A DNA stretch of 64,000 nucleotides from Candidatus Moraniibacteriota bacterium (GTDB lineage Bacteria; Patescibacteriota; Minisyncoccia; Moranbacterales; UBA2206), in assembly GCA_013334765.1 (NCBI GenBank), contig JAAXWW010000001.1, forward strand, positions 236,589 through 300,588, given 5' to 3'. Positions 5,554 through 60,954 of this stretch are shown piece by piece (the first letter of the stretch is position 1; every line of letters begins with the position of its first letter). Below the pieces are notes generated by a model. That model saw only the letters and a program-made list of their open reading frames with translations, made no database searches and had not been told where the DNA came from. A program made the position numbers and the translations under genes.

Positions 5554-6903
5554 ATGCCGGAAGAAAAATCGAAAAAGAAAATCATGCTGGAACGGATCCT
5601 CCGATTCATGGCTTCTCAGATAGTCAAGAAATACAATCCTCGGATCGTCGCGATAACCGGTTCGGTCGGGAAGACTTCAACGAAAGAAGCTGTTTTCTCC
5701 GTTCTTTCCCCGCACTTCCGCGTCAGGAAGAATGAGAAGAATTATAACAATGAAATCGGGCTGCCTTTGACCGTCATCGGTTCTGAAACGGGCGGAAAAT
5801 CGCTTTTGAAATGGATGGGCGTCTTCTTGAAATGGGCGCTGATCATGCTTTGGCCGGTGGAATATCCGGAGATATTGGTTTTGGAAATGGGGGCTGACAG
5901 GAAAGGGGATATCGCCTATCTGACAGGATTCATGAAGCCGGCCATCTCTGTTTTGACGGAAGTGTCCGCCAGCCATCTGGAGCATTTCAAGACTATCGGC
6001 GCGGTTCTCAAGGAGAAGGCGACTATACTCAAAGCCCTCGAAGAAAAGGATCTGGCTATTCTCAACGCGGACAACGTTCAGATCGCGAAGATCCTTTCCA
6101 AGCCCAAGCAGTACGGGATAAGATCGAACATATTGTCATATGGTTTTTCTGATCAGGCCGATGTGAAGGCTGCCGATGTTTTTTATGGATATTCGGATAT
6201 GGAAAAAGAAGGCGATATGGCAAGCAATGATATGCGAGGGCTCAGTTTCAAGCTGACATACAAGGGAACCACTCTGCCGGTGAGGCTTAACAATATCCTG
6301 GCAAAGCATAATATATATGCTGCCATGGCCGGGATTTCAGTCGGTCTGGGCTTCGAACTCAATCTTGTCGATATCGCTGCCAGCCTTGAGAATTTCTCCT
6401 TGCCGCCGGGGCGGATGAGCCTTATCGCTGGCATGAAAGAATCGCATATCATAGACGATACATATAATGCTTCGGTGGTGTCGACCAAAGCAGCGCTAGA
6501 CGTTTTAGGCGAGATGGGCGGCGCGAGAAAGATCGCGGTGCTTGGCGATATGCTGGAGCTGGGCACGGAAACCGAAGCTGGCCACGCGGAAGTAGCTGAT
6601 AAGTTCTTGGAAATCAAAGGGGATATCTTCATCGGAGTCGGAACCAGGATGCTGTTCGCGGTTGAAGAACTGAAAAAAAGAAAATTCAAGGAGGGCAATC
6701 TCTATCATTTCCGAAGCCCGATGGAGGCGGCTGCGAAACTGGAAGAAATCATCGGGAAAGGGGACATTGTCCTTGTGAAAGGCTCTCAGGGGCTTCGCAT
6801 GGAGAAAGTGGTTGAGGAAGCGATGCTTGAGCCGTATAAAGCCAAGGATCTTCTTTGCCGCCAGAACAAGGCCTGGAAAAATGAGCCCTGGAGCGCGGTT
6901 TGA
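5554..6903 (+). CDS. murF: UDP-N-acetylmuramoyl-tripeptide--D-alanyl-D-alanine ligase (Mur ligase family, MurF-like)
   Basis: Mur-ligase P-loop IVAITGSVGKTSTKE; length and domain order fit MurF. Confidence 0.75.
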   Translation: MPEEKSKKKIMLERILRFMASQIVKKYNPRIVAITGSVGKTSTKEAVFSVLSPHFRVRKNEKNYNNEIGLPLTVIGSETGGKSLLKWMGVFLKWALIMLWPVEYPEILVLEMGADRKGDIAYLTGFMKPAISVLTEVSASHLEHFKTIGAVLKEKATILKALEEKDLAILNADNVQIAKILSKPKQYGIRSNILSYGFSDQADVKAADVFYGYSDMEKEGDMASNDMRGLSFKLTYKGTTLPVRLNNILAKHNIYAAMAGISVGLGFELNLVDIAASLENFSLPPGRMSLIAGMKESHIIDDTYNASVVSTKAALDVLGEMGGARKIAVLGDMLELGTETEAGHAEVADKFLEIKGDIFIGVGTRMLFAVEELKKRKFKEGNLYHFRSPMEAAAKLEEIIGKGDIVLVKGSQGLRMEKVVEEAMLEPYKAKDLLCRQNKAWKNEPWSAV

Positions 6904-8818: not shown

Positions 8819-9232
8819 ATGTTTTCCGGCATTCCATTCAAGAATTTGAATCCCTTGGGCTTTTTCACTAAGATAAAGCTTTTTTTCAAAGAAGAATATT
8901 TCAAGAGCCCCGTTGCCAAATGGCTCGTCATTTCGGGACTGGTCGCGAATCTGGCCGATTGGCTGGCGCTGCGCCTCTTTTTGCGCCCAGTGACCGATAC
9001 GGTCATCATCCACTACAACGTATATTTCGGAGTCGATATGATCGGAGATCCGGATCAGGCCTATTGGCTGCCGACTATCGGGCTTATCCTGTTTTCGATA
9101 AACTTCTTGTTTTCTATATATTTTTATGCTAAGAAGGAAAGAATCGCGACGCATATCCTGCTTATGGCAAGCCTCATGATACAACTGAGCCTCATGGTCG
9201 CGATAGCTAGCGTTATCATAATAAACTATTAG
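8819..9232 (+). CDS. hypothetical integral membrane protein (137 aa)
   Basis: Three to four predicted TM helices; no RBS. Confidence 0.35.
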   Translation: MFSGIPFKNLNPLGFFTKIKLFFKEEYFKSPVAKWLVISGLVANLADWLALRLFLRPVTDTVIIHYNVYFGVDMIGDPDQAYWLPTIGLILFSINFLFSIYFYAKKERIATHILLMASLMIQLSLMVAIASVIIINY

Positions 9233-10992: not shown

Positions 10993-11141
10993 AGGACTTG
11001 CGTATTTGCCTCAAAAACCTTTCAAATCGCGAGGCTGTGCGGAACTCGTCCGGGTTATATACGGGTTCGGTCTCGACTCTCCAGAAACTGCTTTCTGTTT
11101 CTGGCTAAGAAAAAGGTTTTTTCAGCAAACGCGTAAGTCCT
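10993..11141 (+). repeat. family-1 palindromic intergenic element, copy A
   Basis: About 30-bp terminal inverted repeats aggacttgcgtatttgcctcaaaaaccttt / aaaggttttttcagcaaacgcgtaagtcct. Near-identical copies at 31930-32077 and 60807-60954. Confidence 0.9.
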
Positions 11142-12191: not shown

Positions 12192-12237
12192 AGAAGATTT
12201 CTATGGATCTTGCGAATATGCAAAGTTCCGCATAAAA

Positions 12238-12275
12238 AGAAAAATCCGTCCAGCTTGCGCGGGACGGATTTTTCT
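12238..12275. terminator. rho-independent terminator (bidirectional)
   Basis: aaaaatccgtcc-cagcttgcgc-gggacggatttttc with T/A runs on both sides, between convergent genes. Confidence 0.6.
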
Positions 12276-12404
12276 TTTTATGAAAAAGTAGTGATATACT
12301 TGTTTCGTTTGCCTGCCTTAGCCGAAGCTACGCTGGACGAGTCCGCCTTCGTCCCGCTTAGCGGGACTACGGCGGACAAGGAAAGAACATGCAATTGTTG
12401 TTTT

Positions 12405-13580: not shown

Positions 13581-13713
13581 TCACATGTGGAAAATTATTT
13601 TTTAAATTTAAAAAATAATTTCTGCAAAAAACAAAGGTCGAAACAAAAAGAAAATTGGAGAGAATAATTTCCAAGGAATTAGAAAATAAAAATAGAAAGG
13701 ACGGTGATAAAAA

Positions 13714-13866
13714 ATGGCAAAGAAAAAAGTAGCTAAGAAAGCTGTGAAGAAAGTAGCCAAGAAAAAGGTTGCTAAGAAAGCCGTGAAAAAAGTTGCTAAG
13801 AAAAAAGTAGCTAAGAAGGCCGTGAAGAAGGTTGCTAAGAAGAAAGTGGCTAAGAAAAAGAAATAG
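13714..13866 (+). CDS. 50-aa lysine/alanine-rich repeat protein, histone H1/Hc1-like (MAKKKVAKKAVKKVAKKK x3)
   Basis: ATG 13714 with AAAGGA Shine-Dalgarno; 39-bp (13-aa) unit repeated 3.5x; stop TAG 13864-13866. Absent from the ORF track (<60 aa); its reverse complement appears there as the FLATFF ORF. Confidence 0.6.
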   Translation: MAKKKVAKKAVKKVAKKKVAKKAVKKVAKKKVAKKAVKKVAKKKVAKKKK

Positions 13867-13964
13867 TTTTCAACGAAAGCGTTCCGATCGTGGAACAAGC
13901 AAACTTAAGAAATAAAGATAGCTTAAGTTTTCCATACGGGTGCCGGTGCACCGGTGTCATGTAT

Positions 13965-14000
13965 AAAGCAAAAAACCGCTAACATGCGGTTTTTTGCTTT
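13965..14000. terminator. rho-independent terminator (bidirectional) between Lys-rich gene and prmC
   Basis: aaagcaaaaaaccgc-taacat-gcggttttttgcttt, a perfect 15-bp stem with U-runs on both strands. Confidence 0.75.
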
Positions 14001-14014
14001 ATACGGGGCTATTT

Positions 14015-22118: not shown

Positions 22119-22724
22119 GTGGATCAAAAGAAATTGAAATCGATAATCGAAAGCATTTTATTCATAAGCGGTGAGCCGCTGTCGCTTTCGCGCATCTCGA
22201 AAGTTACTGGCGCTTCGGAAGAGGAAATCGAAACGGCTCTTGGATTTGTCGTTGAGGATTATTCCGATGGAAGAGGGGTAGTTGTCATAAGGAAAGAGGA
22301 CAAGGTGGAGATGGCGACCAGTCCGGAAAACGCGGAGATCATTTCCGAGCTGGTGAAAAGCGAGATTCAGGAGAACCTCAGTCCGGCGGCATTGGAAGTC
22401 TTGTCGATCATCGCTTATCGTGGTCCGATTGCGCGCGTTGAGATCGAGTCTATCCGCGGGGTCAACTGCAGCTTCACTTTGCGTTCGCTGCTGATGCGTT
22501 CTCTTATTGAGAGAGTGGATAATCCGAAAGACAGCCGGGGATATCTGTATAAGATTTCTTTCCAATTCCTGGAAAGCCTGGGTATGCCGAGCGTTGAAAA
22601 ATTGCCTGATTTCGATAATCTGAGCAAGGACACCAGGATTGAAAGCGTTTTGGTGAAAGAAGAAGATGGGAAAGCGCCGAACGCTGAAACGGTTATGGAA
22701 AATATTGCTGATGAGAGTAAATAG
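22119..22724 (+). CDS. scpB: segregation and condensation protein B
   Basis: SILFISGEPLSLSRISKV...LEVLSIIAYRGPI. Confidence 0.85.
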   Translation: MDQKKLKSIIESILFISGEPLSLSRISKVTGASEEEIETALGFVVEDYSDGRGVVVIRKEDKVEMATSPENAEIISELVKSEIQENLSPAALEVLSIIAYRGPIARVEIESIRGVNCSFTLRSLLMRSLIERVDNPKDSRGYLYKISFQFLESLGMPSVEKLPDFDNLSKDTRIESVLVKEEDGKAPNAETVMENIADESK

Positions 22725-22747
22725 GCGATATGATTGGCTGATGACCA

Positions 22748-22900
22748 GGCGAAGGAGAGGAAATTCAAAGGAACCAAACTCGAATACTCCGTTTTCTTTC
22801 CAAAATATTCACGCCTCTGATTCGTCGGTATGCCTCAGAAAATTTTGGAGAAAATGGGCATTCTCAGACAGTGTTTCCTTCGAATTTCCTCTCCTTCGCC
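22748..22900 (+). repeat. family-3 palindromic intergenic element, copy a
   Basis: 25-bp terminal inverted repeats ggcgaaggagaggaaattcaaagga / tccttcgaatttcctctccttcgcc; core about 85% identical to 25159-25313. Confidence 0.85.
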
Positions 22901-22934
22901 TTAGCTGTATTATTCTATAGATTTAAAAATACCA

Positions 22935-23966
22935 ATGCTGAATCTGATAATTACAATCCTAGCCGTTCCGTTCCTGCCGGCTTTTTTCTATGGCAATGCC
23001 GCGAATGGCATAAGCCAGCAGGATAGCGCCAGCACCGTTGTCATTGAGAATGACGATTCCAAAGTTCTTGGAGAGGCAAGCGAATCCGGCGCGGTGTGCG
23101 GCAACATCCAGAAGCAGAATCTTTTTCCGATCGAAGCCGACGGATTGGTGCCGAGAAGAGTGAAGGGATCTCCTGATATGATGGTCTGGGCCGGATCGGC
23201 CGTTTCCATAGATGCTGACACGGGAACGATCCTCTATTATGATAATGGCAGGAAGAGGACGCAGATCGCGTCGCTCACGAAACTGATGACGGCGATGCTG
23301 GTTATTGATAATATAAAGGATCTCAACGAGCCGGTCACCATAACGAAAGAGGCGATGATGGTTCCGGCGACGATTGTCGGATGTCCGACAAGCACGCTTT
23401 GCAACAGCAACCGGATGTATACCGGAGAGAAGGTGCGCGCGATAGACCTTCTGAAAGTCATGCTCTTGAACAGTGCCAATGATGCGGCGACGGCACTCGG
23501 GGTTCAGGTGGCCGGATCGACTGAGAAGTTCGCCAAGATGATGAATGATAAGGCTGATGAGATGGGGCTGGTGGATACGCATTTCTGCACGCCCTCGGGG
23601 CTGGAAATAGACGGGCATGAAGATGAGTGCTATTCGTCAGCCTATGACATCGCAAGGATCGGAGTGGCGTCGCTTGGCTATGACCTTATCTGGCAGATAA
23701 TGAAGATACCGGAAGGCGTTTTCTATTCCGCGGACGGCAAATACATGCATCAGATGAAGAACACGGACGCGTTTCTGGGAAATATGTCGAATTGCCTAGG
23801 CGCGAAAACAGGGTTCACTCCTTTGGCTGGGAAGTCGCTGCTTCTGGCTACGGTCGATCCGACGGGGAAGCACAAGGTGGTCTCGGTCCTTCTCAACGAC
23901 GAGAACCGCTGGGAGGATATGCGTTCATTGGTGGACTGGGCATATGGAAGCTATGAGTGGAAATAA
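22935..23966 (+). CDS. D-alanyl-D-alanine carboxypeptidase (S11, PBP5/DacC-like)
   Basis: SxxK (IASLTK), SxN (NSANDAA) and KTG (GAKTGFT) motifs. Confidence 0.8.
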   Translation: MLNLIITILAVPFLPAFFYGNAANGISQQDSASTVVIENDDSKVLGEASESGAVCGNIQKQNLFPIEADGLVPRRVKGSPDMMVWAGSAVSIDADTGTILYYDNGRKRTQIASLTKLMTAMLVIDNIKDLNEPVTITKEAMMVPATIVGCPTSTLCNSNRMYTGEKVRAIDLLKVMLLNSANDAATALGVQVAGSTEKFAKMMNDKADEMGLVDTHFCTPSGLEIDGHEDECYSSAYDIARIGVASLGYDLIWQIMKIPEGVFYSADGKYMHQMKNTDAFLGNMSNCLGAKTGFTPLAGKSLLLATVDPTGKHKVVSVLLNDENRWEDMRSLVDWAYGSYEWK

Positions 23967-24036
23967 TTTATCATATAAAGAACGGGGTATGAAGCATGGA
24001 GCGGTATCCGATTATGTTTCCTGCCACGCATAAGCT

Positions 24037-25143
24037 ATGGAATTTTCTCAGGTGCAAACCATTCCGGTGGTGATGAATATCATGAAGGTTCTTCTGACGG
24101 GGTTCCTGGCTTTCATCATAGCCTTTTTCCTTACGCCCCTCATGACGCATTTCCTGTATAAATACAGGATAGGCATAAAGATAAAGAAAACGGATGTTAA
24201 TGGTGAGAAGCTGACCTATGTCAGCCAGCTTCATCAGCATAAGGCCAATACTCCCGTCATGGGAGGGATTCTGGTCTGGTTCACTGTGATGATATTGGTT
24301 TTCGCTTCGCATTATCTATTTCCGATCCTGGCTGGATGGTGGGATATGAACTTTTTGGCCAGGCTTGATTTTTTGAGCCGCAAACAGGTATGGCTTCCTC
24401 TTTTTGCTCTCGTTTCAGCCGGAATACTCGGGCTTTGCGATGATTTCGCGAGCGTTAAGGGGCTTGGGAAGAACAAAGGGGGCGGAATAAGGTTTTTGAC
24501 CCGTTTCGGATGGCTTATCCTTATTTCGGGCCTAGGCGCCTGGTGGTTTTATTATAAGCTCGGGTGGGACAGGATCCATATCCCGGCTATCGGCGATTTC
24601 AGTATCGGGCTGTGGTATATCCCGCTTTTCATGTTCGTCATCCTTTTTGCGGCTATTTCTTCCAATGAGACGGACGGGCTGGATGGTCTCAATGGAGGGA
24701 TCCTGCTTATCGCCTTCGCTTCGTTCGGAATAATATCGTTCGTCGGCAATAAGCTTGATCTGGCGGCTTTCTGTGCCGCGATTTCGGGCGCTCTTCTGGC
24801 ATTCCTTTGGTTCAATGTCTATCCGGCGCGCTTTTTCATGGGGGATACGGGAGCGATATCGCTCGGCGCGACTCTCGGGGTGGTTGCTATGATCACTAAT
24901 TCCGCGCTCATACTTTTCATCATAGTTTTCGTGTATATCATTGAATCCATGTCTGTTGTCATACAGCTTGGATCCAAGAAATTCTTCAAGAGGAAGGTTT
25001 TTCTGGCGGCCCCGATCCATCATCATTTCGAAGCCAAAGGCTGGCCGGAGACCAAAGTGACTATGCGAGCATGGATACTTACGTTGGTTTTCGCGCTGGT
25101 AGGGGTTATAATAGGGATATTGGGAATGGGCAAGTGGAAATAA
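24037..25143 (+). CDS. mraY: phospho-N-acetylmuramoyl-pentapeptide transferase
   Basis: NETDGLDGLNGG and a ...HHHFEAKGWPETKV C-terminus. Confidence 0.9.
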   Translation: MEFSQVQTIPVVMNIMKVLLTGFLAFIIAFFLTPLMTHFLYKYRIGIKIKKTDVNGEKLTYVSQLHQHKANTPVMGGILVWFTVMILVFASHYLFPILAGWWDMNFLARLDFLSRKQVWLPLFALVSAGILGLCDDFASVKGLGKNKGGGIRFLTRFGWLILISGLGAWWFYYKLGWDRIHIPAIGDFSIGLWYIPLFMFVILFAAISSNETDGLDGLNGGILLIAFASFGIISFVGNKLDLAAFCAAISGALLAFLWFNVYPARFFMGDTGAISLGATLGVVAMITNSALILFIIVFVYIIESMSVVIQLGSKKFFKRKVFLAAPIHHHFEAKGWPETKVTMRAWILTLVFALVGVIIGILGMGKWK

Positions 25144-25158
25144 TCAAGTGTGCCAGGC

Positions 25159-25313
25159 GGCAAACCGGATGAGATTTCAAAAGAACCAAACTCGAATGCT
25201 CGGTTTTCTTCTCAAAATATTCACGCCTCTGAATCGTTAGCATGCCTCGGAATATTTTGAAGAAAACCGGCATTCTCAAACAGTGTTTCTTTTGAAATCT
25301 CACCCAGTTTGCC
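25159..25313 (+). repeat. family-3 palindromic intergenic element, copy b
   Basis: Terminal inverted repeats ggcaaaccggatgagatttcaaaag / cttttgaaatctcacccagtttgcc; core shared with 22748-22900. Confidence 0.85.
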
Positions 25314-25337
25314 TAATAACTAAAAATAAAAAAAACT

Positions 25338-26375
25338 ATGTTAAGAAGAATACAGGATGCTGATGTTGCGAATAAGAAAGTGCTGGTGAGGGTTGATTTC
25401 AACGCGGCGCTTGAAAACGAGGATGTGAAGGAGACATTCAAGGTTGCGGCAGCGAAGGAGACTGTCGATTATCTTCTTTCGAAAAATGCCAAGGTGGCGA
25501 TGATAACCCATTTGGGCAGGCCGGATGGCAAGGCTGTTCCGGAATTGTCACTGGGACAGATCAGGGATGATGCTGAGAGGATCCTTGGGATCAGGACTGC
25601 TTTTGTTCCCGACTGCATCGGGGAAAAAGTCGGTGAGGCTATGGATGCTCTTGGGTTCGGTGAGACATTGCTTTTGGAAAACGTGCGATTCTATGACGGC
25701 GATGAAAAAAACGATCCTGAGTTTGCCGGAAAGCTGGCTCAGAATTTCGATATCTTCATAAACGACGCTTTTTCGGCATCGCATCGCGATCATGCTTCCG
25801 TTTCGGGGATAGCCAGGATTTTGCCGAGTTTTGCCGGATTGAGGCTTCAGAAAGAAGTCGAAGAAATGGAAAAGGTGAAGGAGGGATTCTCTCGGCCGGC
25901 AGTCGCGATCATCGGCGGCGCTAAAATCGAAACCAAACTTCCGGTCATCGAGTTTTTCGAGGAAAAATATGACAATGTATTGGTCGGTGGAAAGATTGCC
26001 AATGAGGCGATCGATCAGAAGCTGGAATTTTCGGAGAAAGTGGTTTTGCCGGCGGATTTCGTGGATGACCGCTTGGATATCGGCCCCGACACGCTTTTGC
26101 GCTTCAAGGAAATCGTCCTTGGCGCCAAGACGATTGTCTGGAACGGTCCGACTGGAAAATTCGAGGATGAGAAATATGCGGTGAGTTCCAATGAGATACT
26201 CAACGCGGTTATTGCAAGCGGAGCTTATTCCCTGATTGGCGGAGGCGAGACGCTCGAAATTCTTGAAAAGAACGATGCGATGGGTAAGGTGAGTTTCGTT
26301 TCGACTGGAGGAGGAGCGATGCTTGATTATCTCGGCGGAGCGCCCATGCCGGGGATTGAGGTGTTGGAATCCTAG
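25338..26375 (+). CDS. pgk: phosphoglycerate kinase (compact, 345 aa)
   Basis: VLVRVDFN, GGGETL and STGGGA motifs. Confidence 0.9.
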   Translation: MLRRIQDADVANKKVLVRVDFNAALENEDVKETFKVAAAKETVDYLLSKNAKVAMITHLGRPDGKAVPELSLGQIRDDAERILGIRTAFVPDCIGEKVGEAMDALGFGETLLLENVRFYDGDEKNDPEFAGKLAQNFDIFINDAFSASHRDHASVSGIARILPSFAGLRLQKEVEEMEKVKEGFSRPAVAIIGGAKIETKLPVIEFFEEKYDNVLVGGKIANEAIDQKLEFSEKVVLPADFVDDRLDIGPDTLLRFKEIVLGAKTIVWNGPTGKFEDEKYAVSSNEILNAVIASGAYSLIGGGETLEILEKNDAMGKVSFVSTGGGAMLDYLGGAPMPGIEVLES

Positions 26376-26392
26376 CTTTTTCAGTATCTGGC

Positions 26393-26548
26393 GGCGAGGG
26401 GATTTATTATTTCTGAATGAACTCACCTGTCTGAGAACGCGCATTTTTTCAAAAATATTCCACCGGATGCCGTCGATTGAGGGAATATTTTTGAATAAAA
26501 AATGCGACGTTCGAGTCAGTTCATTCAGAAATAATAAATCCCCTCGCC
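26393..26548 (+). repeat. family-2 palindromic intergenic element, copy 1
   Basis: Arms ggcgaggggatttattatttctgaatgaactcac / gtcagttcattcagaaataataaatcccctcgcc; core cgcattttttcaaaaatattcc...ggaatatttttgaa...aaaaatgcg. Confidence 0.85.
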
Positions 26549-26591
26549 TAGTATTAAAATGTAAAATGTAAGAATTTAACGAATAAATAAT

Positions 26592-27848
26592 ATGAGCAAA
26601 ATAAAAAAAATATTCGCGCGTGAGATTCTGGATTCGAGGGGCAATCCTACGGTGGAAGTTGAGATGGAATTGGAGAGCGGATTGAGCGCGACAGCGGCTG
26701 TGCCGTCGGGAGCTTCGACCGGATCGCATGAAGCGCTTGAGCTTCGCGACAATGATCCGAAAAGATATCACGGCCTGGGAGTCATCCAGGCGGTCAAGAA
26801 CGTGAACACGAAAATCCAGAAGGCGATTGTGGGAATGGAAGTTTCGATGCAAGCCGAGATCGACAAGGCGATGATCGATCTTGACGGCACGGAAAACAAA
26901 TCGAAACTCGGAGCCAATGCGATTTTGGGCGTGTCTCTGGCAGCGGCGCGCGTGGCGGCTATGGAGAAAAAGGTGCCGCTTTACGAATATATCGCAGTCC
27001 TTTATGGCGAAACTCCGAAAAAGTTCAAGACCCCGATCCCGATGTTCAACGTGATAAACGGCGGAGCGCACAGCGATTCCGGCCTTTCGATCCAGGAATT
27101 CAAGATCGTGCCACACGGAATAAAGAAATTCAAAGAGCAGCTCCGGGCTGGAAGCGAAGTTTTTCATGAGCTCAAAAAGCTCTTGGCTTCTGAAGGATAT
27201 TCTGTCGGTGTGGGGGACGAGGGAGGATTCGCGCCGCGCCTTGAAAGCAATGCCAAAGCGTTGGAATTCATCAATCTTGCGATTGAGAATGCGGGATATG
27301 AGAAAGGCAAGCAGGTGGCGATCGGACTCGACGCGGCTGCTAGCGGGTTCTATAACGAGCAGGAAGGCCAGTATGTGTTCAAGCCGGAGAACGCTCCGCT
27401 GACGCGGGAGATGCTGGTGAATATATATAACGAGTGGATCGATAAGTATAACGTGATTTCGGTCGAAGACGGATTGTTCGAGGACGATTGGGAGGGATGG
27501 CACGCCATGGAGGAGAAAATCGGGAAAAGGGTGATGTCTATCGGGGACGATCTTCTGGTGACGAATGTGAAACGGGTCAAGAAAGCGATCGAAGAAAAAG
27601 CATGCAACGCGGTTCTCATCAAGGTGAATCAGATTGGAACGCTCACGGAGACATTGGATTGTATGCGGCTTGCCAAGAAGAACAAGATGAAGCGGGTGAT
27701 GTCGCACCGCTCGGGAGAAACGACCGATGACTTCATTTCTGATCTCGCTGTCGGAGCGGGTGCTGAATATATGAAGTCGGGCTCGCTTTCCAGAGGCGAA
27801 AGGATCTGCAAATACAACAGGCTTTTGAGGATTGAGGAGAAGATATAG
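26592..27848 (+). CDS. eno: enolase
   Basis: MSKIKKIFAREILDSRGNPTVEVE... full-length enolase. Confidence 0.95.
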   Translation: MSKIKKIFAREILDSRGNPTVEVEMELESGLSATAAVPSGASTGSHEALELRDNDPKRYHGLGVIQAVKNVNTKIQKAIVGMEVSMQAEIDKAMIDLDGTENKSKLGANAILGVSLAAARVAAMEKKVPLYEYIAVLYGETPKKFKTPIPMFNVINGGAHSDSGLSIQEFKIVPHGIKKFKEQLRAGSEVFHELKKLLASEGYSVGVGDEGGFAPRLESNAKALEFINLAIENAGYEKGKQVAIGLDAAASGFYNEQEGQYVFKPENAPLTREMLVNIYNEWIDKYNVISVEDGLFEDDWEGWHAMEEKIGKRVMSIGDDLLVTNVKRVKKAIEEKACNAVLIKVNQIGTLTETLDCMRLAKKNKMKRVMSHRSGETTDDFISDLAVGAGAEYMKSGSLSRGERICKYNRLLRIEEKI

Positions 27849-27857
27849 GCAAAAGAA

Positions 27858-27890
27858 AATCGCCGCCAGTCCGTTTGGATTGGCGGCGAT
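27858..27890 (-). terminator. rho-independent terminator for minus-strand 36-aa ORF (11-bp stem)
   Basis: aatcgccgcca-gtccgtttggat-tggcggcgatt; the U-run (ttttcttttgc) is on the minus strand. Confidence 0.55.
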
Positions 27891-27929
27891 TGTGGAAGCC
27901 CCATCTTTAACATTGATCACCTTCTCATT

Positions 27930-28040
27930 TTAGGGGAGAAACATCGGAATAAGGAAAAGGGCGACCAATCCCAGGATGGTTAAGCCTATCAGCCTAACAG
28001 TAGACATGGCCGATGATGCTATCATTCCGAACATGTTCAT
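27930..28040 (-). CDS. 36-aa hydrophobic single-TM peptide (MNMFGMIASSAMSTVRLIGLTILGLVALFLIPMFLP)
   Basis: ATG (RC of 28038-28040) with a GGAGG Shine-Dalgarno 6 nt upstream; stop TAA (RC of 27930-27932); own terminator. Too short for the ORF track. Confidence 0.4.
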   Translation of the reverse strand: MNMFGMIASSAMSTVRLIGLTILGLVALFLIPMFLP

Positions 28041-28130
28041 GATACGCCTCCGGTTGATAGGTTCGAAAGAACTCCTCCTGCTTGGATTGTGACTCCATAT
28101 TGTCATAAAGTCAATTTTAAGAATAACATC

Positions 28131-29111
28131 ATGTCAAAAATCATCTGCATCGGTTCGGTCTGCAAGGATATCTTCTTTCCTACTTCGGAAGGGACGATAA
28201 TCGATACTCCGGACGATATCCTGAGCCAGAAGAAAATCGCTTTCGAGCTGGGAGCGAAATACAAGATAGGTGAGAGGTTCGAGACGATTGGAGGATGCGC
28301 CGGGAATGTGGCAGTCGGCCTTTCGAGGCTCGGGGTGGAATCTTCCTGTTATGGGATTATCGGAGGGGACGAGTCCGGAACCTGGATAAAGGATCAGCTT
28401 GAGAAAAACGGCGTAGGTACGGAGCTTATCGAGATCCTTTCCGATAGTCAGAGCGATATGTCAGCCATAATCATCGATTCAAGGAGCGCTGACAGGGTCA
28501 TCTTTTCCAATCAGAAAGCCAATGGCGAGCTCATTGTCGACAAGGGCAAGATAGATGATGCTGAGTGGATTTTCATCGGCGATCTGCATGGGGAGTGGGA
28601 AGACAATCTGGACAGGATTTTTGAAGATGCCAAGGATAATGGGATGAAGATAGCTTTCAATCCGCGCCAGAGCAATATCCATGACAATCCGAAGAAGATC
28701 TTGGATTGCATCCGGGGAGCGGAGGTGCTGATTCTCAATAAGGATGAATCAATGGAACTTGTCTCGGCATTGGGTGAAAGCATTCCCAAAGAGGATCTGG
28801 AAAGTGAGGATTTCCTGGTTAGGAAATTCTTGGATCTCGGCGCCAAGGTCGCCGTCCTGACTGACGGGGAAAGGGGCGGCTGGGCTTCTGATGGCGGGGA
28901 TGTCCTGCATGTTGCGGCTCGCAATGCTGAAGCGGTCGACTCGACGGGAGCGGGAGACGCGTGTGCCAGCGCGTATCTGGCGGCTCACATGAAAGGAAAG
29001 GGATTGGAGGAATGCCTTCGGTGGGGAATCCGGAACGGAGCGAGCGTGGTTGAACACTATGGAGCGATCGAAGGGCTTTTGGATGAGGAGAAGATTTCAT
29101 CATTGGAATAG
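28131..29111 (+). CDS. PfkB-family carbohydrate/nucleoside kinase (ribokinase-like)
   Basis: GGxxxN and DSTGAGDA motifs. The ORF track starts at 28089; MSKIICIGSV at 28131 is the likely start. Confidence 0.8.
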   Translation: MSKIICIGSVCKDIFFPTSEGTIIDTPDDILSQKKIAFELGAKYKIGERFETIGGCAGNVAVGLSRLGVESSCYGIIGGDESGTWIKDQLEKNGVGTELIEILSDSQSDMSAIIIDSRSADRVIFSNQKANGELIVDKGKIDDAEWIFIGDLHGEWEDNLDRIFEDAKDNGMKIAFNPRQSNIHDNPKKILDCIRGAEVLILNKDESMELVSALGESIPKEDLESEDFLVRKFLDLGAKVAVLTDGERGGWASDGGDVLHVAARNAEAVDSTGAGDACASAYLAAHMKGKGLEECLRWGIRNGASVVEHYGAIEGLLDEEKISSLE

Positions 29112-29198
29112 CCAGCCTTTCTGAATCAGGGCTTGCTTGCTTGCATACGGCAACTAATGTTCCGGCCTGTCAGTTTATATACTAAATACAAAAAATAT

Positions 29199-31259
29199 AT
29201 GGATCTTCAAAAACTGTTCAATCCCTCGTCTATCGCGATAGTCGGCGCGTCTGAGGAGGCGGGGAAGGTGGGGAACGTGATCGCGAAAAATGTCCTGGAG
29301 CTGGGATACGCGGGAAAGGTTTTCCTGGTCAATCCGAAATATGACGAGCTTTTCGGGAGGAAGTGCTATAAGAACCTATCCGAAGTTGAAGAACCGGTCG
29401 ATCTGGTCATCATTTCCATTCCGGGAAAATTCGTCGCGGCGGAGATCAGGAATAACGCGGATAGGCACAAGAACTATGTGATAGTCTCTTCCGGTTTTTC
29501 AGAAATAGGCGAAGCTGGAAAAATTCGAGAGGAAGAGATTTTGAAAATCGCGAGTGAAAACGGTCTTTCTATTCTGGGACCGAATTGTCTGGGGTTCATC
29601 GTTCCGCGTCTCAAGCTCAACGCGTCTTTCGCGTCGGGAATTTCAGAAGAAGGGAATGTGGCGCTTGTCTCGCAGTCCGGTGCTTTGGCGGTCGCCCTTA
29701 TGGATTCGGCGAAAGGAATGGATCTGAAATTTTCAAGCGTCATTTCCGTTGGGAACAAGATGCAGATATCGGAAACGGAACTGATGGAATATCTTGCTGA
29801 GGATGAGAATACGAAAGTCATCGCGATGTATTTGGAAGGGATAAAAGATGGAAAGAAATTTTTGGAAGCGGCGAGCAAGGTTTCTGCCAAAAAACCGATC
29901 GTGGTTTTGAAAGCGGGGAAGACCGAGAAATCGCAAAAAGCGATCTCTTCGCACACGGGAGCGCTCGCTGGAAGCGACGATATCATGGATGTGGCATTCA
30001 GGAAATGCGGAGTCTTGCGGGCGGAAAGCCTGGAAGAGTTTTTCGAGATCGTCAGCTTCATTTCGCTGGAAGGATTTCCGAAAAACGGCAAGGTGGCAGT
30101 CATCACTAATGCCGGAGGACCGGGAGTGCTCACGGCGGATGCCTTTTTAGGAAAGAGCGTTGCGCTTCATGAATTCGACGAAAAGACTAAGGAAAAATTC
30201 AGGAAGTTCCTGCCGGAAGAATCGTCGCTTGGGAACCCGATCGATATGCTGGGGGACGCGAAAGAGGATCGCTATCGGAAAACATTGAGCTTGCTGGATA
30301 AGGATCCGGAAGTCGGGACGGTTCTTGCTATCCTGACGCCGCAGGATCAGACTCCGGTCGCGAAAGTGGCCAGCGTCCTTTCCAAATTCAAGGAAAAGAG
30401 CGATAAGGTCATCCTGGCTTCTTTCATCGGAGGGGAACGTATAAAAAAAGGCCTTAAGAAATTGTCGGATAATGGCGTTCCTCAGTTTTCTTTTCCGGAA
30501 AACGCGGTGAAGGCTTTGGACGCGGCATATAGCTGGAGCCTTGGGCGAAACGGATATGTTCCAGCGGATGGAAAGGAAAATACTGAGAGGAAAGAGAAAG
30601 CGCTTTTGGTCATAAGGAACGCCAAGCATGAAGGCCGGAATGCTCTTTTCTTTTCCGAAGCGAAGGAAATCATGGAGATGTATGGGGTGAGATGCTCTGA
30701 TGCCAGGGAAATAGGTCCCGGGGAAAAGGAAGTCCTGATTGATTTTTTCCCATCGGTTCTCAAGGTCGATAGCGATAAGGTCATTCATAAGACTGATAAG
30801 AAAGGCGTTGTTCTGGATATCGAGAATCAGGAGAGCTTCGATGCGGCGGTCAATGATCTGCGGCGTGAATTCTATGGAGCACACCTAGTGGCTCAGCCGA
30901 TGCTATCGAAGGGAATGGAACTCATTTTCGGCATAAAGAAGGATCCGATATTCGGGCCGATCGTTATCTGCGGCCTGGGAGGGATATACACGGAGATTTT
31001 CAAGATGGTAGACTTCTTCATCCCGCCATTCGGCGAAGGGGAAATAAAGAAGCTGCTCATGAGCGGCAAGACGAAGTTCCTCTTTGAAGAAACCAGAGGG
31101 CAGAAGCCGTATGACATCGATGAGGTGGTCGGGATAATAAAGGGAATCGGTGATTTTTCGCGGGAGGTGGACGAGTTTTCCGAGTTCGACATCAACCCCC
31201 TTATTGTCTATAATGATGGAAAAGCGGCAGTAGCCGTGGACGTGAAAATAATTCTTTAA
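29199..31259 (+). CDS. acetyl-CoA synthetase (ADP-forming), fused alpha/beta (CoA-binding + ATP-grasp)
   Basis: N-terminal CoA-binding fold (SIAIVGASEEAGKVG) and C-terminal ATP-grasp. The track ORF begins at 29133; MDLQKLF at 29199 is the likely start. Confidence 0.8.
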   Translation: MDLQKLFNPSSIAIVGASEEAGKVGNVIAKNVLELGYAGKVFLVNPKYDELFGRKCYKNLSEVEEPVDLVIISIPGKFVAAEIRNNADRHKNYVIVSSGFSEIGEAGKIREEEILKIASENGLSILGPNCLGFIVPRLKLNASFASGISEEGNVALVSQSGALAVALMDSAKGMDLKFSSVISVGNKMQISETELMEYLAEDENTKVIAMYLEGIKDGKKFLEAASKVSAKKPIVVLKAGKTEKSQKAISSHTGALAGSDDIMDVAFRKCGVLRAESLEEFFEIVSFISLEGFPKNGKVAVITNAGGPGVLTADAFLGKSVALHEFDEKTKEKFRKFLPEESSLGNPIDMLGDAKEDRYRKTLSLLDKDPEVGTVLAILTPQDQTPVAKVASVLSKFKEKSDKVILASFIGGERIKKGLKKLSDNGVPQFSFPENAVKALDAAYSWSLGRNGYVPADGKENTERKEKALLVIRNAKHEGRNALFFSEAKEIMEMYGVRCSDAREIGPGEKEVLIDFFPSVLKVDSDKVIHKTDKKGVVLDIENQESFDAAVNDLRREFYGAHLVAQPMLSKGMELIFGIKKDPIFGPIVICGLGGIYTEIFKMVDFFIPPFGEGEIKKLLMSGKTKFLFEETRGQKPYDIDEVVGIIKGIGDFSREVDEFSEFDINPLIVYNDGKAAVAVDVKIIL

Positions 31260-31297
31260 AAGCGGAATTCTTTCTTTTCTGAGTTCCGAATAAAAAA

Positions 31298-31864
31298 ATG
31301 GACAATAAGAAATACAAAATCCTGATTGTTGATGATGGCGATGACGCGAGAACTATATACAAGGATGTCTTTGAGAAGGAAGGTTTCGATGTGGTCGAGG
31401 CTCTTGACGGAGTCGAAGGATTGGAAAAAGCGATAAAGGAAATGCCGGACGTCGTTTTCACTGGGATCATAATGCCGAGAATGGACGGATTTAGCCTGAA
31501 AGAGGAGCTTTCCAAGAACGTGGCTACTTCCAATATTCCGGTTTTCATGAATTCCCACATGGGTCGTGAAGAGGACAGGAAAAAGGCCCAGATTTCGGGG
31601 ATAAAGGATTTTTTCGTGGTAGGAATGATCACGCCAAAAGAAGTGGTCGTGAGGATAAAAGCCACTCTTGAAGGCGGGAACTATATGCTTAAAGTGAACC
31701 ATTCCGATTCTGACGCTTTCCGCCTCGTGAACGATCTTGGATTGGGCAATGGTTTTTCATGTCCCAGATGCGGAAACGAAATGGTCTTGAATCTGAAAAC
31801 TATCAGCCTTCCGAACAAGGAGTTTTCCGCCAAGCTGTCCTGTCCTATTTGCGACGGGAAATAA
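31298..31864 (+). CDS. response regulator receiver domain fused to C-terminal zinc ribbon
   Basis: REC (ILIVDDGDD...FTGIIMPRMDG) plus CPRCG...CPICDG. Confidence 0.75.
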   Translation: MDNKKYKILIVDDGDDARTIYKDVFEKEGFDVVEALDGVEGLEKAIKEMPDVVFTGIIMPRMDGFSLKEELSKNVATSNIPVFMNSHMGREEDRKKAQISGIKDFFVVGMITPKEVVVRIKATLEGGNYMLKVNHSDSDAFRLVNDLGLGNGFSCPRCGNEMVLNLKTISLPNKEFSAKLSCPICDGK

Positions 31865-31888
31865 GTTTTTTGCTGTCGATATCAAAAG

Positions 31889-31925
31889 CGAGGCAGGTTC
31901 GTGTTTCTGTGCCTCGTCTCTTTTC
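31889..31925 (+). terminator. rho-independent terminator
   Basis: cgaggca-ggttcgtgtttctg-tgcctcg followed by tctcttttcg. Confidence 0.5.
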
Positions 31926-31929
31926 GCTC

Positions 31930-32077
31930 AGGACTTATGCGTTTGCCTCAGAAACCTTTTAAATCGCGAGGCTATTCGCGATCTGTCCGGGTTATATATG
32001 GTTTTATCTTGACTTTCCAGAAATTGCTTTCTGTTTCTGGCTAGAGAAAAGGTTTTTTCAGCAAACGCATAAGTCCT
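31930..32077 (+). repeat. family-1 palindromic intergenic element, copy B
   Basis: About 88% identical to 10993-11141; both arms carry compensating changes (tatgcg). Confidence 0.9.
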
Positions 32078-46985: not shown

Positions 46986-47504
46986 ATGAAAATATATATC
47001 TGCGAAATCTGCGGAGACGCCTATATCGGTTCTGAAAAGCCGGCCAATTGCCCTTTCTGCGGGGCAAGGTCCAATTTCATAAAGGACGGCGCGGAAGCCA
47101 AGCCGATTGTCAATGAGAAGATAGAAATCAGTGAAGAATCCAGGAAGAATCTTTTGGAAACATTGGATCTGGAAATAGACGCCAATGCGATATATCTCTG
47201 CATGGCCGGGAAGGCGAAGGAATATATGATAAAGGCGATGTATAAGAGGCTGGCCAAGGTGGAATTCGAGCACGCGACTATTGTTACGAAACTTTTGGGG
47301 ATGGATGCTCCCAAAGCCAAGGAGCTGCCGTGTCCGGACAGCGATGCTGAAAATTTCGAAAAGACTATCGCGCTTGAGGATCACGCTGCCGCTCTTTATC
47401 GCGAATTCGTCAAGAAATCGGCCGAAAAGAATATCAGGATTTTCTTCACGGCTCTTTCCCAGGTGGAAGAGGAACATAAGCAGCTTATTTCGGAAATTGC
47501 CTGA
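46986..47504 (+). CDS. rubrerythrin-family protein with N-terminal rubredoxin-like CxxC...CxxC
   Basis: CEICG...CPFCG followed by a ferritin-like domain with ExxH pairs (EDHAAALY, EEEHKQLI). Extended -10 tGaTATAAT at 46944-46952. Confidence 0.8.
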   Translation: MKIYICEICGDAYIGSEKPANCPFCGARSNFIKDGAEAKPIVNEKIEISEESRKNLLETLDLEIDANAIYLCMAGKAKEYMIKAMYKRLAKVEFEHATIVTKLLGMDAPKAKELPCPDSDAENFEKTIALEDHAAALYREFVKKSAEKNIRIFFTALSQVEEEHKQLISEIA

Positions 47505-47516
47505 GAGACTATTATC

Positions 47517-47670
47517 GGAAAGAGAGTGATGATATTTCAAATGACTGACTCGAGCATCGCATTTTTTATTCAAAAATATTCCCTCGCTCGACGGCATCCG
47601 GTGGAATATTTTTGAAAAAATACGTGCTCTCAAACAGGTGAGTCGTTTGAAATATCATCACTCTCTTTCC
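47517..47670 (-). repeat. family-2 palindromic intergenic element, copy 2 (inverted relative to copy 1)
   Basis: The core is the reverse complement of the 26449-26515 core; different arms (ggaaagagagtgatgatatttcaaa...) that pair with each other. Confidence 0.85.
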
Positions 47671-47707: not shown

Positions 47708-48786
47708 TATGGAAGATAAAATCATAGAATTGAAGAATAAGATCCTGCTTTTGCGGGACTATCTTTGACGTTGCGGGAAAGGAAAACAGGATCCTGGAGC
47801 TGGAGGCTGAATCGAATCGGGAGGGGTTCTGGGATGACCATCAGAAGGCTTCTTCGGTCATGCAGGAACTGGAAGAGATCAGGAAAGAGATAAGGATCCT
47901 TTTGGAAAGCGAAAAGGAAATAGCCGATATTTCGGAATTCTTGGAAATGGCGGAGAGCGAAGAGGAAAAGGATGAGATAGGGAACAAGGTTGCGGAACTT
48001 GAAAAGAACCTGGCCGAGCTGGAATTCAAGACCCTTTTCGACGGGGAATATGACAGCAATCCGGCAATCGTTTCGATATATTGCGGCGCCGGCGGGGTGG
48101 ATGCGCAGGACTGGTCGGAAATGATCCTCAGGATGTATCTCAGGTGGGCGGAAAAGAACGGTTTTCGGGCCAAGCTTCTGGATGAGACCCGCGGGCAGGA
48201 GGCCGGGATCAAGAACGCCACGATAGAATTCACCGGCCCCTATGCTTATGGATATTTGAAAAGCGAATCGGGCGTGCATCGCCTGGTGCGCCTTTCGCCT
48301 TTCAACTCGGACAATCTGAGGCAGACTTCCTTTGCCATGGTCGAGGTCCTGCCTGTTATCGATATGATAAGCGAAGTGGAGATCAAACCGGATGATCTTA
48401 GGGTGGATGTTTTCCGTTCGCAAGGGGCTGGCGGTCAGGGCGTCAATACGACGGATAGCGCGGTGAGGATCCTGCATATCCCGACTGGAATCATGGTCAC
48501 TTGCCAGAACGAGAGGAGCCAGATGCAGAACAGGGAACAGGCGATGAAGATCCTGAAAGCCAAGCTGCACAAGAAATACCTGGAAGAAAAAGAAGCGGAA
48601 AAAAACAAACTGCGGGGCGAGCAGGTGAGTGCCGAATGGGGAAGCCAGATACGGTCATATGTGGTTCATCCGTATAAAATGGTGAAGGATCACCGCACTA
48701 AGCATGAAACTGCGGATGTCGAAAGCGTTTTCGACGGGAACATCAACGGTTTCATGGAAAGCTATTTGGAGGGTTTGAAAAAATAG
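47708..48786 (+). CDS. prfB: peptide chain release factor 2 (programmed +1 frameshift; apparent extra 1-nt frame disruption)
   Basis: N-terminal MEDKIIELKNKILLLRDYL then CTT TGA C at 47762-47768. The +1 frame gives DVAGKENRILELEAESNR and stops at 47835; the main ORF (47860-48786, SPF motif, GGQ in QGAGGQGVNTT) is in the next frame. The junction is in the G-run 47817-47826. Confidence 0.8.
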
Positions 48787-51032: not shown

Positions 51033-51054
51033 CCTGCTGGACCAACGGTCCCAA

Positions 51055-51095
51055 GGAGGCGCCCTACCGAACGGTAGCGCGCCTCCTTTTTTATT
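51055..51095 (+). terminator. rho-independent terminator (nested hairpin)
   Basis: ggaggcgc-cctaccgaacggtag-gcgcctcc followed by tttttt. Confidence 0.8.
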
Positions 51096-60806: not shown

Positions 60807-60954
60807 AGGACTTGCGCATTTGCCTCAAAAACCTTTTAAATCGCGAGGCTGTGCGGAACTCATCCTGGTTATATATGGTTCGGTCTTGACTCTCCAGAAA
60901 CTGCTTTCTGTTTCTGGCTAAGAAAAAAGTTTTTTCAATAAACGCGCAAGTCCT
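60807..60954 (+). repeat. family-1 palindromic intergenic element, copy C
   Basis: About 90% identical to 10993-11141; arms carry matching ttgcgc/gcgcaa changes. Confidence 0.9.

Follow-up and report, generated by a model that had tools for sequence, protein, structure and literature searches.

Most of what is known of dispersed palindromic repeats, including REP, REPIN, ERIC and Correia elements, comes from Proteobacteria and from a small number of other cultivated groups. Among them, REPINs have been described as hairpins that form in single-stranded DNA (ssDNA) or mRNA and show compensatory changes, with a Y1 transposase, named RAYT, acting in trans (PMC3116915). In this study, we analyzed a stretch of 64,000 nucleotides (nt) from a Candidatus Moraniibacteriota bacterium (306-kb contig JAAXWW010000001.1, positions 236,589 to 300,588 of the forward strand), hereafter the window, whose palindromes are given E-numbers. 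Two of them, E4 (26393-26548) and E6 (47517-47670), had been flagged in a preliminary description as copies of one palindromic element. Together with E2 and E3, they belong to a family of hairpin-forming intergenic repeats which is spread through Candidatus Moranbacteria genomes and is apparently undescribed. The literature search returned no description of such a repeat, nor of dispersed palindromic repeats in the Candidate Phyla Radiation (CPR, Patescibacteria).

CPR genomes have about 1 Mb and are tightly packed and, for this reason, 150-bp insertions between housekeeping genes are conspicuous. Seven palindromes of ~150 nt were present in the window. We propose, with moderate confidence, that the family of E4 and E6 is a non-autonomous mobile DNA hairpin, the constant loops of which would be recognized by a putative trans-acting, structure-specific enzyme. 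Its gain and loss among relatives, its orientation bias and the lack of an excess of G·U pairs lead us to prefer this reading to that of a structured RNA alone.

The two palindromes and their copies in the window

Both palindromes had the claimed size of ~155 bp and were complete hairpins. E4 (156 nt) has pgk (25338-26375) on one side and eno (26592-27848) on the other. Its sense strand, defined as that in which ACTCGA precedes TCTCARACAG, is the minus strand and is antisense to both neighbors. The outer arms (34 nt, 97% complementary) are 88 nt apart, and the inner arms (26444-26461 and 26482-26499; 18 nt, 94%) enclose an apical loop with the semi-conserved CAATCGACGGC (26462-26481, minus strand). 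Also on the minus strand, the ACTCGA motif (26511-26516) forms the 5′ side of an asymmetric internal loop and the TCTCAGACAG motif (26427-26436), which is part of the search pattern used below, forms its 3′ side. The outer helix ends in two locus-specific tips that pair with each other, GGCGAGGGGATTTATTA (26393-26409) and TAATAAATCCCCTCGCC (26532-26548). E6 (154 nt, plus strand) is located between the rubrerythrin gene (46986-47504) and prfB (47709-48786). Its outer arms (33 nt, 94% complementary) are also 88 nt apart, and the inner arms (47565-47582 and 47603-47620; 18 nt, 94%) enclose an apical loop with CGCTCGACGGC (47583-47602). The internal loop is formed by ACTCGA (47548-47553) on the 5′ side and TCTCAAACAG (47628-47637) on the 3′ side. 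The 5′ tip, GGAAAGAGAGTGATGAT (47517-47533), begins 12 nt past the rubrerythrin stop codon, and the 3′ tip is ATCATCACTCTCTTTCC (47654-47670).

When folded as RNA, E4 and E6 reached −86.1 and −77.8 kcal/mol (z = −12.3 and −11.8, respectively) and none of 200 shuffled sequences was as stable. When both were folded as DNA together with 50 nt of sequence from either flank, their arms remained paired (z = −11.6 and −10.2, respectively). Therefore, the ~155-nt rods are obtained with either nucleic acid and, as DNA, also in flanking context, so that unpaired arms, one of the refuting outcomes named in the preliminary description, were not observed. A covariance model of the family, R1 (155 positions and 59 pairs, built from 27 copies), scored 122.8 bits for E4 and 111.6 bits for E6, with 55 and 53 of the 59 modelled pairs being Watson-Crick, respectively.

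The palindromes might be due to chance or to an assembly artefact, as short-read assemblies break inside them: the short-read Logan contig L001, from the same organism, corresponds to 26519-32054 of the window, starting in the right arm of E4 and ending in E5 (31930-32077), a copy of another repeat described below. This explanation can practically be dismissed. None of the 200 shuffles folds as well, the motif pattern of the family has four matches in the window with none expected, intact copies are found in independent assemblies from many projects, and the covariation reported below also refutes it. It must be noted that, since short-read assemblies break at these palindromes (another contig, L075, also ends shortly past pgk), metagenome-assembled genomes (MAGs) probably under-report the copies; Moranbacteria MAGs are therefore fragmented at such points and the elements under-counted.

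E6 matched E4 as the reverse complement across 140 nt with 81% identity, in agreement with the inverted common core of the preliminary description, and the arms of each copy pair with their own partner, as it had also stated. In the modelled helices, the two copies differ by 18 Watson-Crick-to-Watson-Crick double changes and by only one single change. The outer 35-bp arms had been considered unrelated between copies. This holds for the outermost ~15-17 bp, as the tips are identical at 12 of 30 positions (40%), but not for the remaining arm, which is related: the inner unit is identical at 100 of 124 aligned positions (81%). Likewise, the term "arm replacement" suits only the outer ~15 bp, which are locus-specific and perhaps do not travel with the repeat, whereas most of the arm has diverged by paired substitutions.

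The spurious open reading frames (ORFs) at both sites do encode a common peptide (RIFSKIFHRMPSIEGIFLNKKCDVRVS on the plus strand at E4 and RIFSKIFHRMPSSEGIFLNKKCDARVS on the minus strand at E6), which is a by-product of the repeat. Among 56 copies of the family, the best frame was open in only 31, and the core length modulo 3 was 0, 1, and 2 in 34, 13, and 9 copies, respectively. With no constraint on frame or on lengths that are a multiple of 3 among these copies, a protein-coding element was rejected. A 790-aa ORF on the minus strand (25548-27920) runs antisense across pgk, E4 and eno and is an unsupported shadow ORF.

The preliminary description limited the family to two copies. The window holds four, all matched by R1 with 107-123 bits. 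E2 (22747-22901, plus strand; 107.1 bits) belongs to the same superfamily but to another subtype, with a longer apical loop, and is flanked by scpB (22119-22724) and by a gene for a D-Ala-D-Ala carboxypeptidase (22935-23966). E3 (25159-25313, plus strand; 112.7 bits) is also of the E2 subtype, its neighbors being a glycosyltransferase family 4 gene (24037-25143) and pgk. The strand-asymmetric motifs common to E2, E3, E6 and the reverse-complemented E4 are ACTCGA on the left, CAAAA(A)TATTC, and TCTCARACAG on the right. According to the order of these motifs, the sense strand is the plus strand in E2, E3 and E6 and the minus strand in E4. AACTC or GACTC makes up the 5′ side of the internal loop, and the GA of ACTCGA pairs with the TC of the 3′ side.

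A second palindromic repeat of ~148 nt (family 1) was found at 10993-11141, 31930-32077 (E5) and 60807-60954, always on the plus strand, with identities of 60-83% (83% for the closest pair). The conserved ends of its copies, AGGACTT...AAGTCCT, close a branched fold, and none of the three (10993, 31930 and 60807) was matched by R1. Because of these conserved termini and the lack of detection by R1, family 1 is a family separate from that of E2, E3, E4 and E6.

Distribution of the family and pairing of its helices

One genome per GTDB species was scanned with the element pattern, a second scan was made on metagenome contigs and a third on viral contigs. Loci and contigs from outside the window are given L-numbers. 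The first scan gave 25 loci, 23 of which fold as the same rod, and nearly all of them come from genomes labelled Moranbacteria, Moraniibacteriota or Parcubacteria group. The metagenome scan gave 48 loci, while the viral contigs had no match and gave no sign of a phage origin. R1 recovered every true copy, scoring 75-142 bits in the sense orientation and 33-67 bits in the antisense one, and after removal of duplicates 56 distinct copies were collected. The preliminary description had made its claim depend on more copies and on conservation in relatives, and we found many further copies, which are kept in relatives. Beyond the pattern seeds, R1 added only two copies (L024, 5785-5935, and L036, 4723-4874) in ~400 kb of flanks. 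The pattern matches L005, L022, L029, L030, L038, L040, L043, L049 and L066 were not recovered by R1 and were discarded as chance matches. An internally deleted relic was seen by eye in L027 (~9080-9150), in which the outer stem (TGAAGAATTAAAAT / ATTTTAATTCTTCA) and the TCTCAAACAG motif remain, with the left motif and the inner helices lost.

The flanking genes were called with a six-frame codon model and checked against Pfam. They are functionally unrelated housekeeping genes, including those of formate-tetrahydrofolate ligase (FTHFS), ABC exporters, pyrophosphatases and a class II (D/K/N) aminoacyl-tRNA synthetase, as well as folD, tig, tgt, a nuoF-like gene, gatA, gyrA, smc, uvrD, fpg, tilS, pgk, eno and prfB. 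As their functions have no common theme, gene-specific regulation was rejected. Rfam at gathering thresholds detected only three tRNAs in the whole window, and at E ≤ 10 the best on-element match in 22700-26600 was a plant microRNA model with 22.1 bits, against a gathering score of 60.5. No terminator-like site was found on any element in 22600-26700, T-runs were absent from the 3′ flanks, and promoter-like matches at the elements were only weak. A role as terminator or promoter was rejected, the elements lacking the short GC-rich stem followed by a T-run that characterizes intrinsic terminators.

In the R1 alignment, the element is a rod of 145-155 nt with three helices. From the outside in, an outer helix of ~30 bp is followed by the asymmetric internal loop, with AACTC on its 5′ side and TCARACAGK on its 3′ side, and by a middle helix of ~15 bp. 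Next come a bulge of 2-3 nt on the 5′ side and an AT-rich inner helix of ~14 bp, capped by an apical loop of 16-30 nt in which YCRACGGC is usually found. The repeat unit carries the subterminal repeats ATTTC...GAAAT, and its inner ~125 nt are 76-90% identical between paralogues. Over the 56 copies, mean pairwise identity was 0.98 in the columns of the 5′ loop and 0.88 in those of the 3′ loop, whereas it ranged from 0.30 to 0.59 in the outer arms and was 0.30 in the outer tips. The search pattern imposed part of this loop conservation (part of the ACTCGA motif, and TCTCARACAG), but not the flanking A residues, the apical-loop motif or the TTT/AAA pairs at columns 19-21. Thus, the features held constant are the unpaired ones between the helices, namely the internal loop, the small 5′ bulge and the apical loop, and not the helices themselves, which need only to pair.

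The structural, hairpin-forming reason given in the preliminary description for the complementarity of the arms was strongly supported by the 56 copies, in which 88.3% of the cells were paired, in comparison with 62.8% in column shuffles and at most 60.8% with slid partners. Both sides had changed in 51 of the 59 pairs, and the covariation score was 0.572 vs. 0.146 in shuffles and at most 0.170 in the slid controls. These pairing statistics are somewhat inflated since the alignment was fitted to the model, although single-sequence folds yield the same helices. Between copies with 90% identity or more, single changes prevail, and between more distant ones double changes do; thus, mismatches arise first and are later compensated or removed.

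In a selected RNA helix, G·U pairs are tolerated and A·C pairs are not. The 3234 cells of the paired columns contained 2783 Watson-Crick pairs, 74 G·U and 118 A·C (35 G·U vs. 49 A·C in the first 28 copies), so that G·U is not favored over A·C and wobble is, if anything, rarer. Both strands fold about equally well; in E2 and E3, the antisense strand folds as well as or better than the sense strand as RNA, and E4, which is antisense to its genes, is among the best-paired copies (55 of 59 pairs). For these three reasons, the complementarity is symmetric, as expected of DNA or of a process that copies one arm from the other. The same results speak against the main rival of the mobile DNA hairpin, namely a cis-acting RNA hairpin that is transcribed within operon mRNAs and serves the host, perhaps one retained after spreading as a mobile module. 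Such a hairpin could act as an RNase III-type processing site, a 3′-end stabilizer, or a protein-binding or translational-coupling module, and the conservation of the loop sequences on one strand favors it. In our judgement this explanation is rather unlikely, also in view of the functional incoherence of the flanking genes, the lack of any Rfam match even at E ≤ 10 (other than the microRNA model mentioned above, far below its gathering score) and the lack of a terminator-like T-run.

Gain, loss and orientation of the element

The contig L076, whose phosphoglycerate kinase (PGK) is 80% identical to that of the window, is fully syntenic with it from scpA to recJ (scpA-scpB-S11-GT4-pgk-eno-pfkB...recJ). 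Its spacers at the sites of E2, E3 and E4 have only 21, 19, and 23 nt, respectively, and are element-free, as is the 65-nt spacer at the site of the family-1 copy E5 (31930). R1 found no copy across the 18 kb of L076. In L075 (PGK 87% identical), there is no E2 and a divergent copy occupies the E3 site. This contig ends 93 nt beyond pgk, and its pgk-eno spacer (6699-6791) has no E4-like copy. A different repeat, of CAAAGTTCAAAG-type direct repeats, is present there and, where the contig ends, the small palindrome ATCCCGGGCTTGACCCGGGAT, which is GC-rich. A relative with ~83% DNA identity carries orthologues of E2 (L039) and E3 (L041). The FTHFS gene has a copy on each side in L024 and L036; L032 has the upstream copy alone and L012 the downstream one alone. 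Given these empty syntenic sites and the unrelated neighbor genes, it can be stated that the element is moved or lost over times comparable to those in which species diverge, and that it is not tied to particular genes. For a host RNA hairpin, it is adverse that the sites are dispensable in close relatives, which keep the same operon with spacers of 19-23 nt.

Where the neighbor genes are co-directional, the element is oriented with them in 35 cases and against them in 5 (~20:5 after collapsing orthologous loci by hand), which favors the RNA hairpin. So do two features of its position: about half of the copies have their first paired base between −14 and +9 nt from the stop codon of the upstream gene, and in a few loci the 3′ tip reaches the start region of the next gene (−8 to +8 nt). 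When the GC skew at third codon positions (GC3 skew) of the flanks is taken as reference, 46 of 55 copies have their sense strand on the G-rich strand (skew > 0.08) and 4 have it on the C-rich one (< −0.08); for independent loci, collapsed by hand, the ratio is ~30:3. Both signals are confounded, as most genes are on the G-rich strand. When the genes are on the C-rich strand, five copies follow the skew and not the genes (L019, L020, L053, L056 and L071), while one or two follow the genes (L016 and L055); the element thus mostly ignores gene direction there, which speaks against an RNA hairpin. E4 opposes both the skew and the gene direction. The G-rich strand is the template of lagging-strand synthesis and is single-stranded at each passage of the fork. 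The IS200/IS605 insertion sequences show the same bias toward the lagging-strand template, owing to their transposition as ssDNA (PMC5027513).

This bias (46/55) would also be expected if the element were a DNA-level host device for replication or chromosome organization, in which a hairpin extruded on the lagging-strand template signals priming or single-strand initiation, or is bound by a nucleoid or fork protein. The Watson-Crick-only complementarity, the conserved loops with free stems and the hairpin kept in place agree with it, and it has an analogue in the single-strand origins of rolling-circle plasmids, which are long hairpins with few conserved loop motifs and a strict dependence on orientation. 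We nevertheless consider it very unlikely. The element is dispensable in a syntenic relative, with zero copies in 18 kb, its density is irregular and apparently low outside the genome of the window, and the paralogous subfamilies within a genome look copied rather than independently arisen. In addition, the CS-6 motif TAGCGT of single-strand origins of the ssoA type is absent from the loop consensus, and we know of no requirement for such sites in chromosomal lagging-strand synthesis.

Two further observations on the window concern coding sequences. prfB shows an apparent classical +1 programmed frameshift, in which a short ORF from the ATG at 47709 runs into CTT TGA C (47763-47769) and the long release factor 2 ORF, with the PCRF and RF-1 domains, goes on in the +1 frame thereafter. 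At 13709-13857, a tandem repeat of 39 nt (24+15) encodes a Lys/Ala-rich low-complexity segment of the AKKAVKKVAKKK type, like the tail of histone H1-like or nucleoid proteins.

Ends, proposed mechanism and known systems

The ends were analyzed in ~30 cleanly delimited copies, which revealed neither a target-site duplication (TSD), or any flanking direct repeat, nor a terminal inverted repeat (TIR) conserved between copies. In 11 of 30 copies the first paired base, which is often G, has TC directly on its 5′ side, and this was the only flank signal. TCG recurs inside the element, within the ACTCGA of the internal loop and within the ATCGAC of many apical loops. The 5′ TC or TCG may be a cleavage or target signature. 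Being small, intergenic, multicopy and palindromic, and gained or lost between relatives, the element resembles a classical miniature inverted-repeat transposable element (MITE), that is, an internally deleted insertion sequence of the DDE-transposase type moved by cut-and-paste through its TIRs. This origin is nonetheless highly improbable, as paralogues agree in their outer ~15 bp no more than by chance (20-53% identity), leaving no conserved TIR, and no TSD accompanies the copies. Moreover, an orientation bias is unexpected for MITEs, and the pairing constraint covers the whole length of the element and not the ends alone.

These outer ~15 bp per side are mutually complementary at each locus in spite of their chance-level identity, and their G-C pairs amount to 33%, vs. 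11% in the adjoining stem. In at least two independent loci, the 5′ tip coincides with the last 4-5 codons and the stop codon of the upstream gene, namely tgt (L017/L060) and a nuoF-like gene (L009); the tgt of L021, with no element downstream, ends at the same alignment column as that of L017. At least at L017/L060 and L009, the 5′ tip resembles host sequence and the 3′ tip an inverted copy of that sequence. One proposal, which we consider unlikely, is that the mobile unit is only the inner ~125 nt and that the tips are made at or soon after insertion, by inverted copying of the upstream host flank. It fits with tips that are complementary in spite of their chance identity, that are GC-richer than the stem and whose 5′ side corresponds to host codons in at least two loci. 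Hairpin-primed (snap-back) synthesis from the 3′ end of the element, once its 5′ end is joined to host DNA, could be the route. To our knowledge, such a "target-site inverted duplication" does not belong to any described prokaryotic transposition pathway and, if tips do arise at insertion, it would be a new transposition footprint. Alternative origins of the tips are a fast compensatory drift of an unconstrained stem end, or a gradual outward extension of the palindrome by template switching.

At the E2 site, the empty spacer of L075 was compared with the window flanks for an inverted duplication under four models, with z ~0 between highly diverged spacers; the equal length of 71 nt in this comparison is probably a coincidence. 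With regard to whether tips stay with their locus, the E3-site tips of L075 were identical to those of E3 at 16 of 30 positions, and likewise at 16 of 30 to those of the unrelated E6. The window also has solo near-perfect intergenic hairpins (12231-12282, 12341-12377, 13961-14004 and 51053-51088), with stems of 17-24 bp and loops of 1-6 nt. Two of them have A-run/GC-clamp/T-run symmetry, resembling bidirectional terminators, and their G+C clamp is beside the loop, the opposite of the element tips. Insertion of the element into the loop of a pre-existing terminator hairpin was judged unlikely, as the tips are G+C-rich distally and the empty sites of L076 have no hairpin.

In the mechanism that we propose for the mobile DNA hairpin, the repeated unit of ~125 nt, bracketed at every locus by ~15 bp of locus-specific complementary sequence, would form its rod mainly in ssDNA, with the sense strand usually on the G-rich lagging-strand template and exposed at each fork passage. 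The constant loops would be the contact or cleavage sites of the trans-acting, structure-specific enzyme, for which the best analogue would be an HUH-type single-strand transposase (IS200/IS605 TnpA or RAYT). This putative enzyme would copy or move the unit into other short intergenic spacers without TSD. The helices only have to pair and, for this reason, would drift by Watson-Crick-to-Watson-Crick changes.

Several facts weigh against this proposal. No transposase or partner enzyme was found among the 25 commonest of 76 Pfam families of the scanned window proteins, and the termini are not conserved, unlike those of IS200/IS605 or REPINs. Copy number seems low in most genomes, four per 64 kb being dense. 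Three or four copies oppose the skew (E4, L016, L055 and L067), and orientation also agrees with transcription (35:5; ~20:5). The orientation therefore only leans to replication polarity, the discordant sample (5 vs. 1-2) being too small to separate replication from transcription.

The upkeep of the hairpin in place is a further point on that side. Orthologous copies keep 45-58 of the 59 pairs despite many compensated changes, with 14 double vs. 3 single changes between L024 and L036, and 7 vs. 13 between E2 and its L039 orthologue. E3 and its L041 orthologue are 94% identical, more than the surrounding genes (82%). As decaying selfish insertions would not be expected to keep a hairpin by double changes in place, this suggests selection at the locus, and it is also in favor of the RNA hairpin. 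The hairpin could be kept by selection on a host-level role or by conversion, for instance by template switching in quasi-palindromes, which is known in other bacteria. On either account the constant loops are under constraint, since conversion would erase the asymmetric loops and the bulge unless these were selected.

The mobile DNA hairpin proposed here resembles REPINs in being non-autonomous, extragenic and multicopy, in forming one long ssDNA or mRNA hairpin with compensatory changes, in lacking the classical TIR/TSD logic, in its long vertical persistence and in presumably depending on an enzyme encoded elsewhere. However, in REPINs the arms (REP 16-25-mers) are conserved and the spacer is free, whereas in the Moranbacteria element the arms are free and the loops conserved. 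Moreover, it is longer (145-155 nt), has no GTAG-type REP motif, has locus-specific outer ~15 bp and a CPR host, and no RAYT was found among the 25 commonest Pfam families mentioned above. With IS200/IS605, it shares the lack of TSD and TIRs, an active strand on the lagging-strand template (confounded here with gene direction) and, putatively, recognition by DNA secondary structure rather than by duplex sequence. In contrast, IS200/IS605 elements carry a separate small hairpin near each end (LE and RE) and have a fixed target of four or five nucleotides, while here one hairpin spans the whole element, the sole flank signal is the 5′ TC (11/30 copies) and tnpA was not seen among the same 25 families. 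Therefore, the element does not appear to be a member of REPIN/RAYT or IS200/IS605 and is only alike in logic.

Similarly, ERIC (IRU) and Correia (NEMIS) elements are imperfect palindromes of ~125-155 bp that are intergenic in operons, cotranscribed with their neighbors, and present or absent between related strains. Correia elements have TIRs of 26 bp, a TA duplication and an IHF site. In both, the primary sequence is conserved over the full length, and not only in loops and inner stem as here, where TSDs are also lacking, orientation bias is strong and there is no sequence similarity to them. The attC sites of integrons are comparable in that a folded single-strand structure defines the site, with variable stems, constant extrahelical features, strand specificity and a role of replication orientation. 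They differ in their RYYYAAC/GTTRRRY core sites, absent from the element (which ends in GGC.../GGA.../GTG... and ...GCC/...TCC/...CAC), and in their cassette arrays beside an integrase, in place of which core housekeeping genes are found. Single-strand origins of the ssoA type are imperfect hairpins of ~130-200 nt with a conserved loop motif and internal site and with stems that vary, acting in one orientation on displaced ssDNA. The element shares the long hairpin, the conserved loop motif and internal site and the variable stems, but is chromosomal, multicopy and placed between housekeeping genes, with no CS-6 TAGCGT and no plasmid or Rep context.

Dispersed palindromic repeats are thus a known kind of element, and what appears to be new, judging from Rfam and the literature search, is a family of them in CPR/Patescibacteria, a group of phylum level, the design of constant loops with free stems, and the locus-specific complementary tips. 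The two loop motifs are handles for finding the enzyme that moves or binds the element, and the covariance model R1 is a tool for its census. In comparison with the systems above, the usual conservation pattern is inverted, with constant loops and free arms, which would make the element a clean natural example of recognition by nucleic-acid shape.

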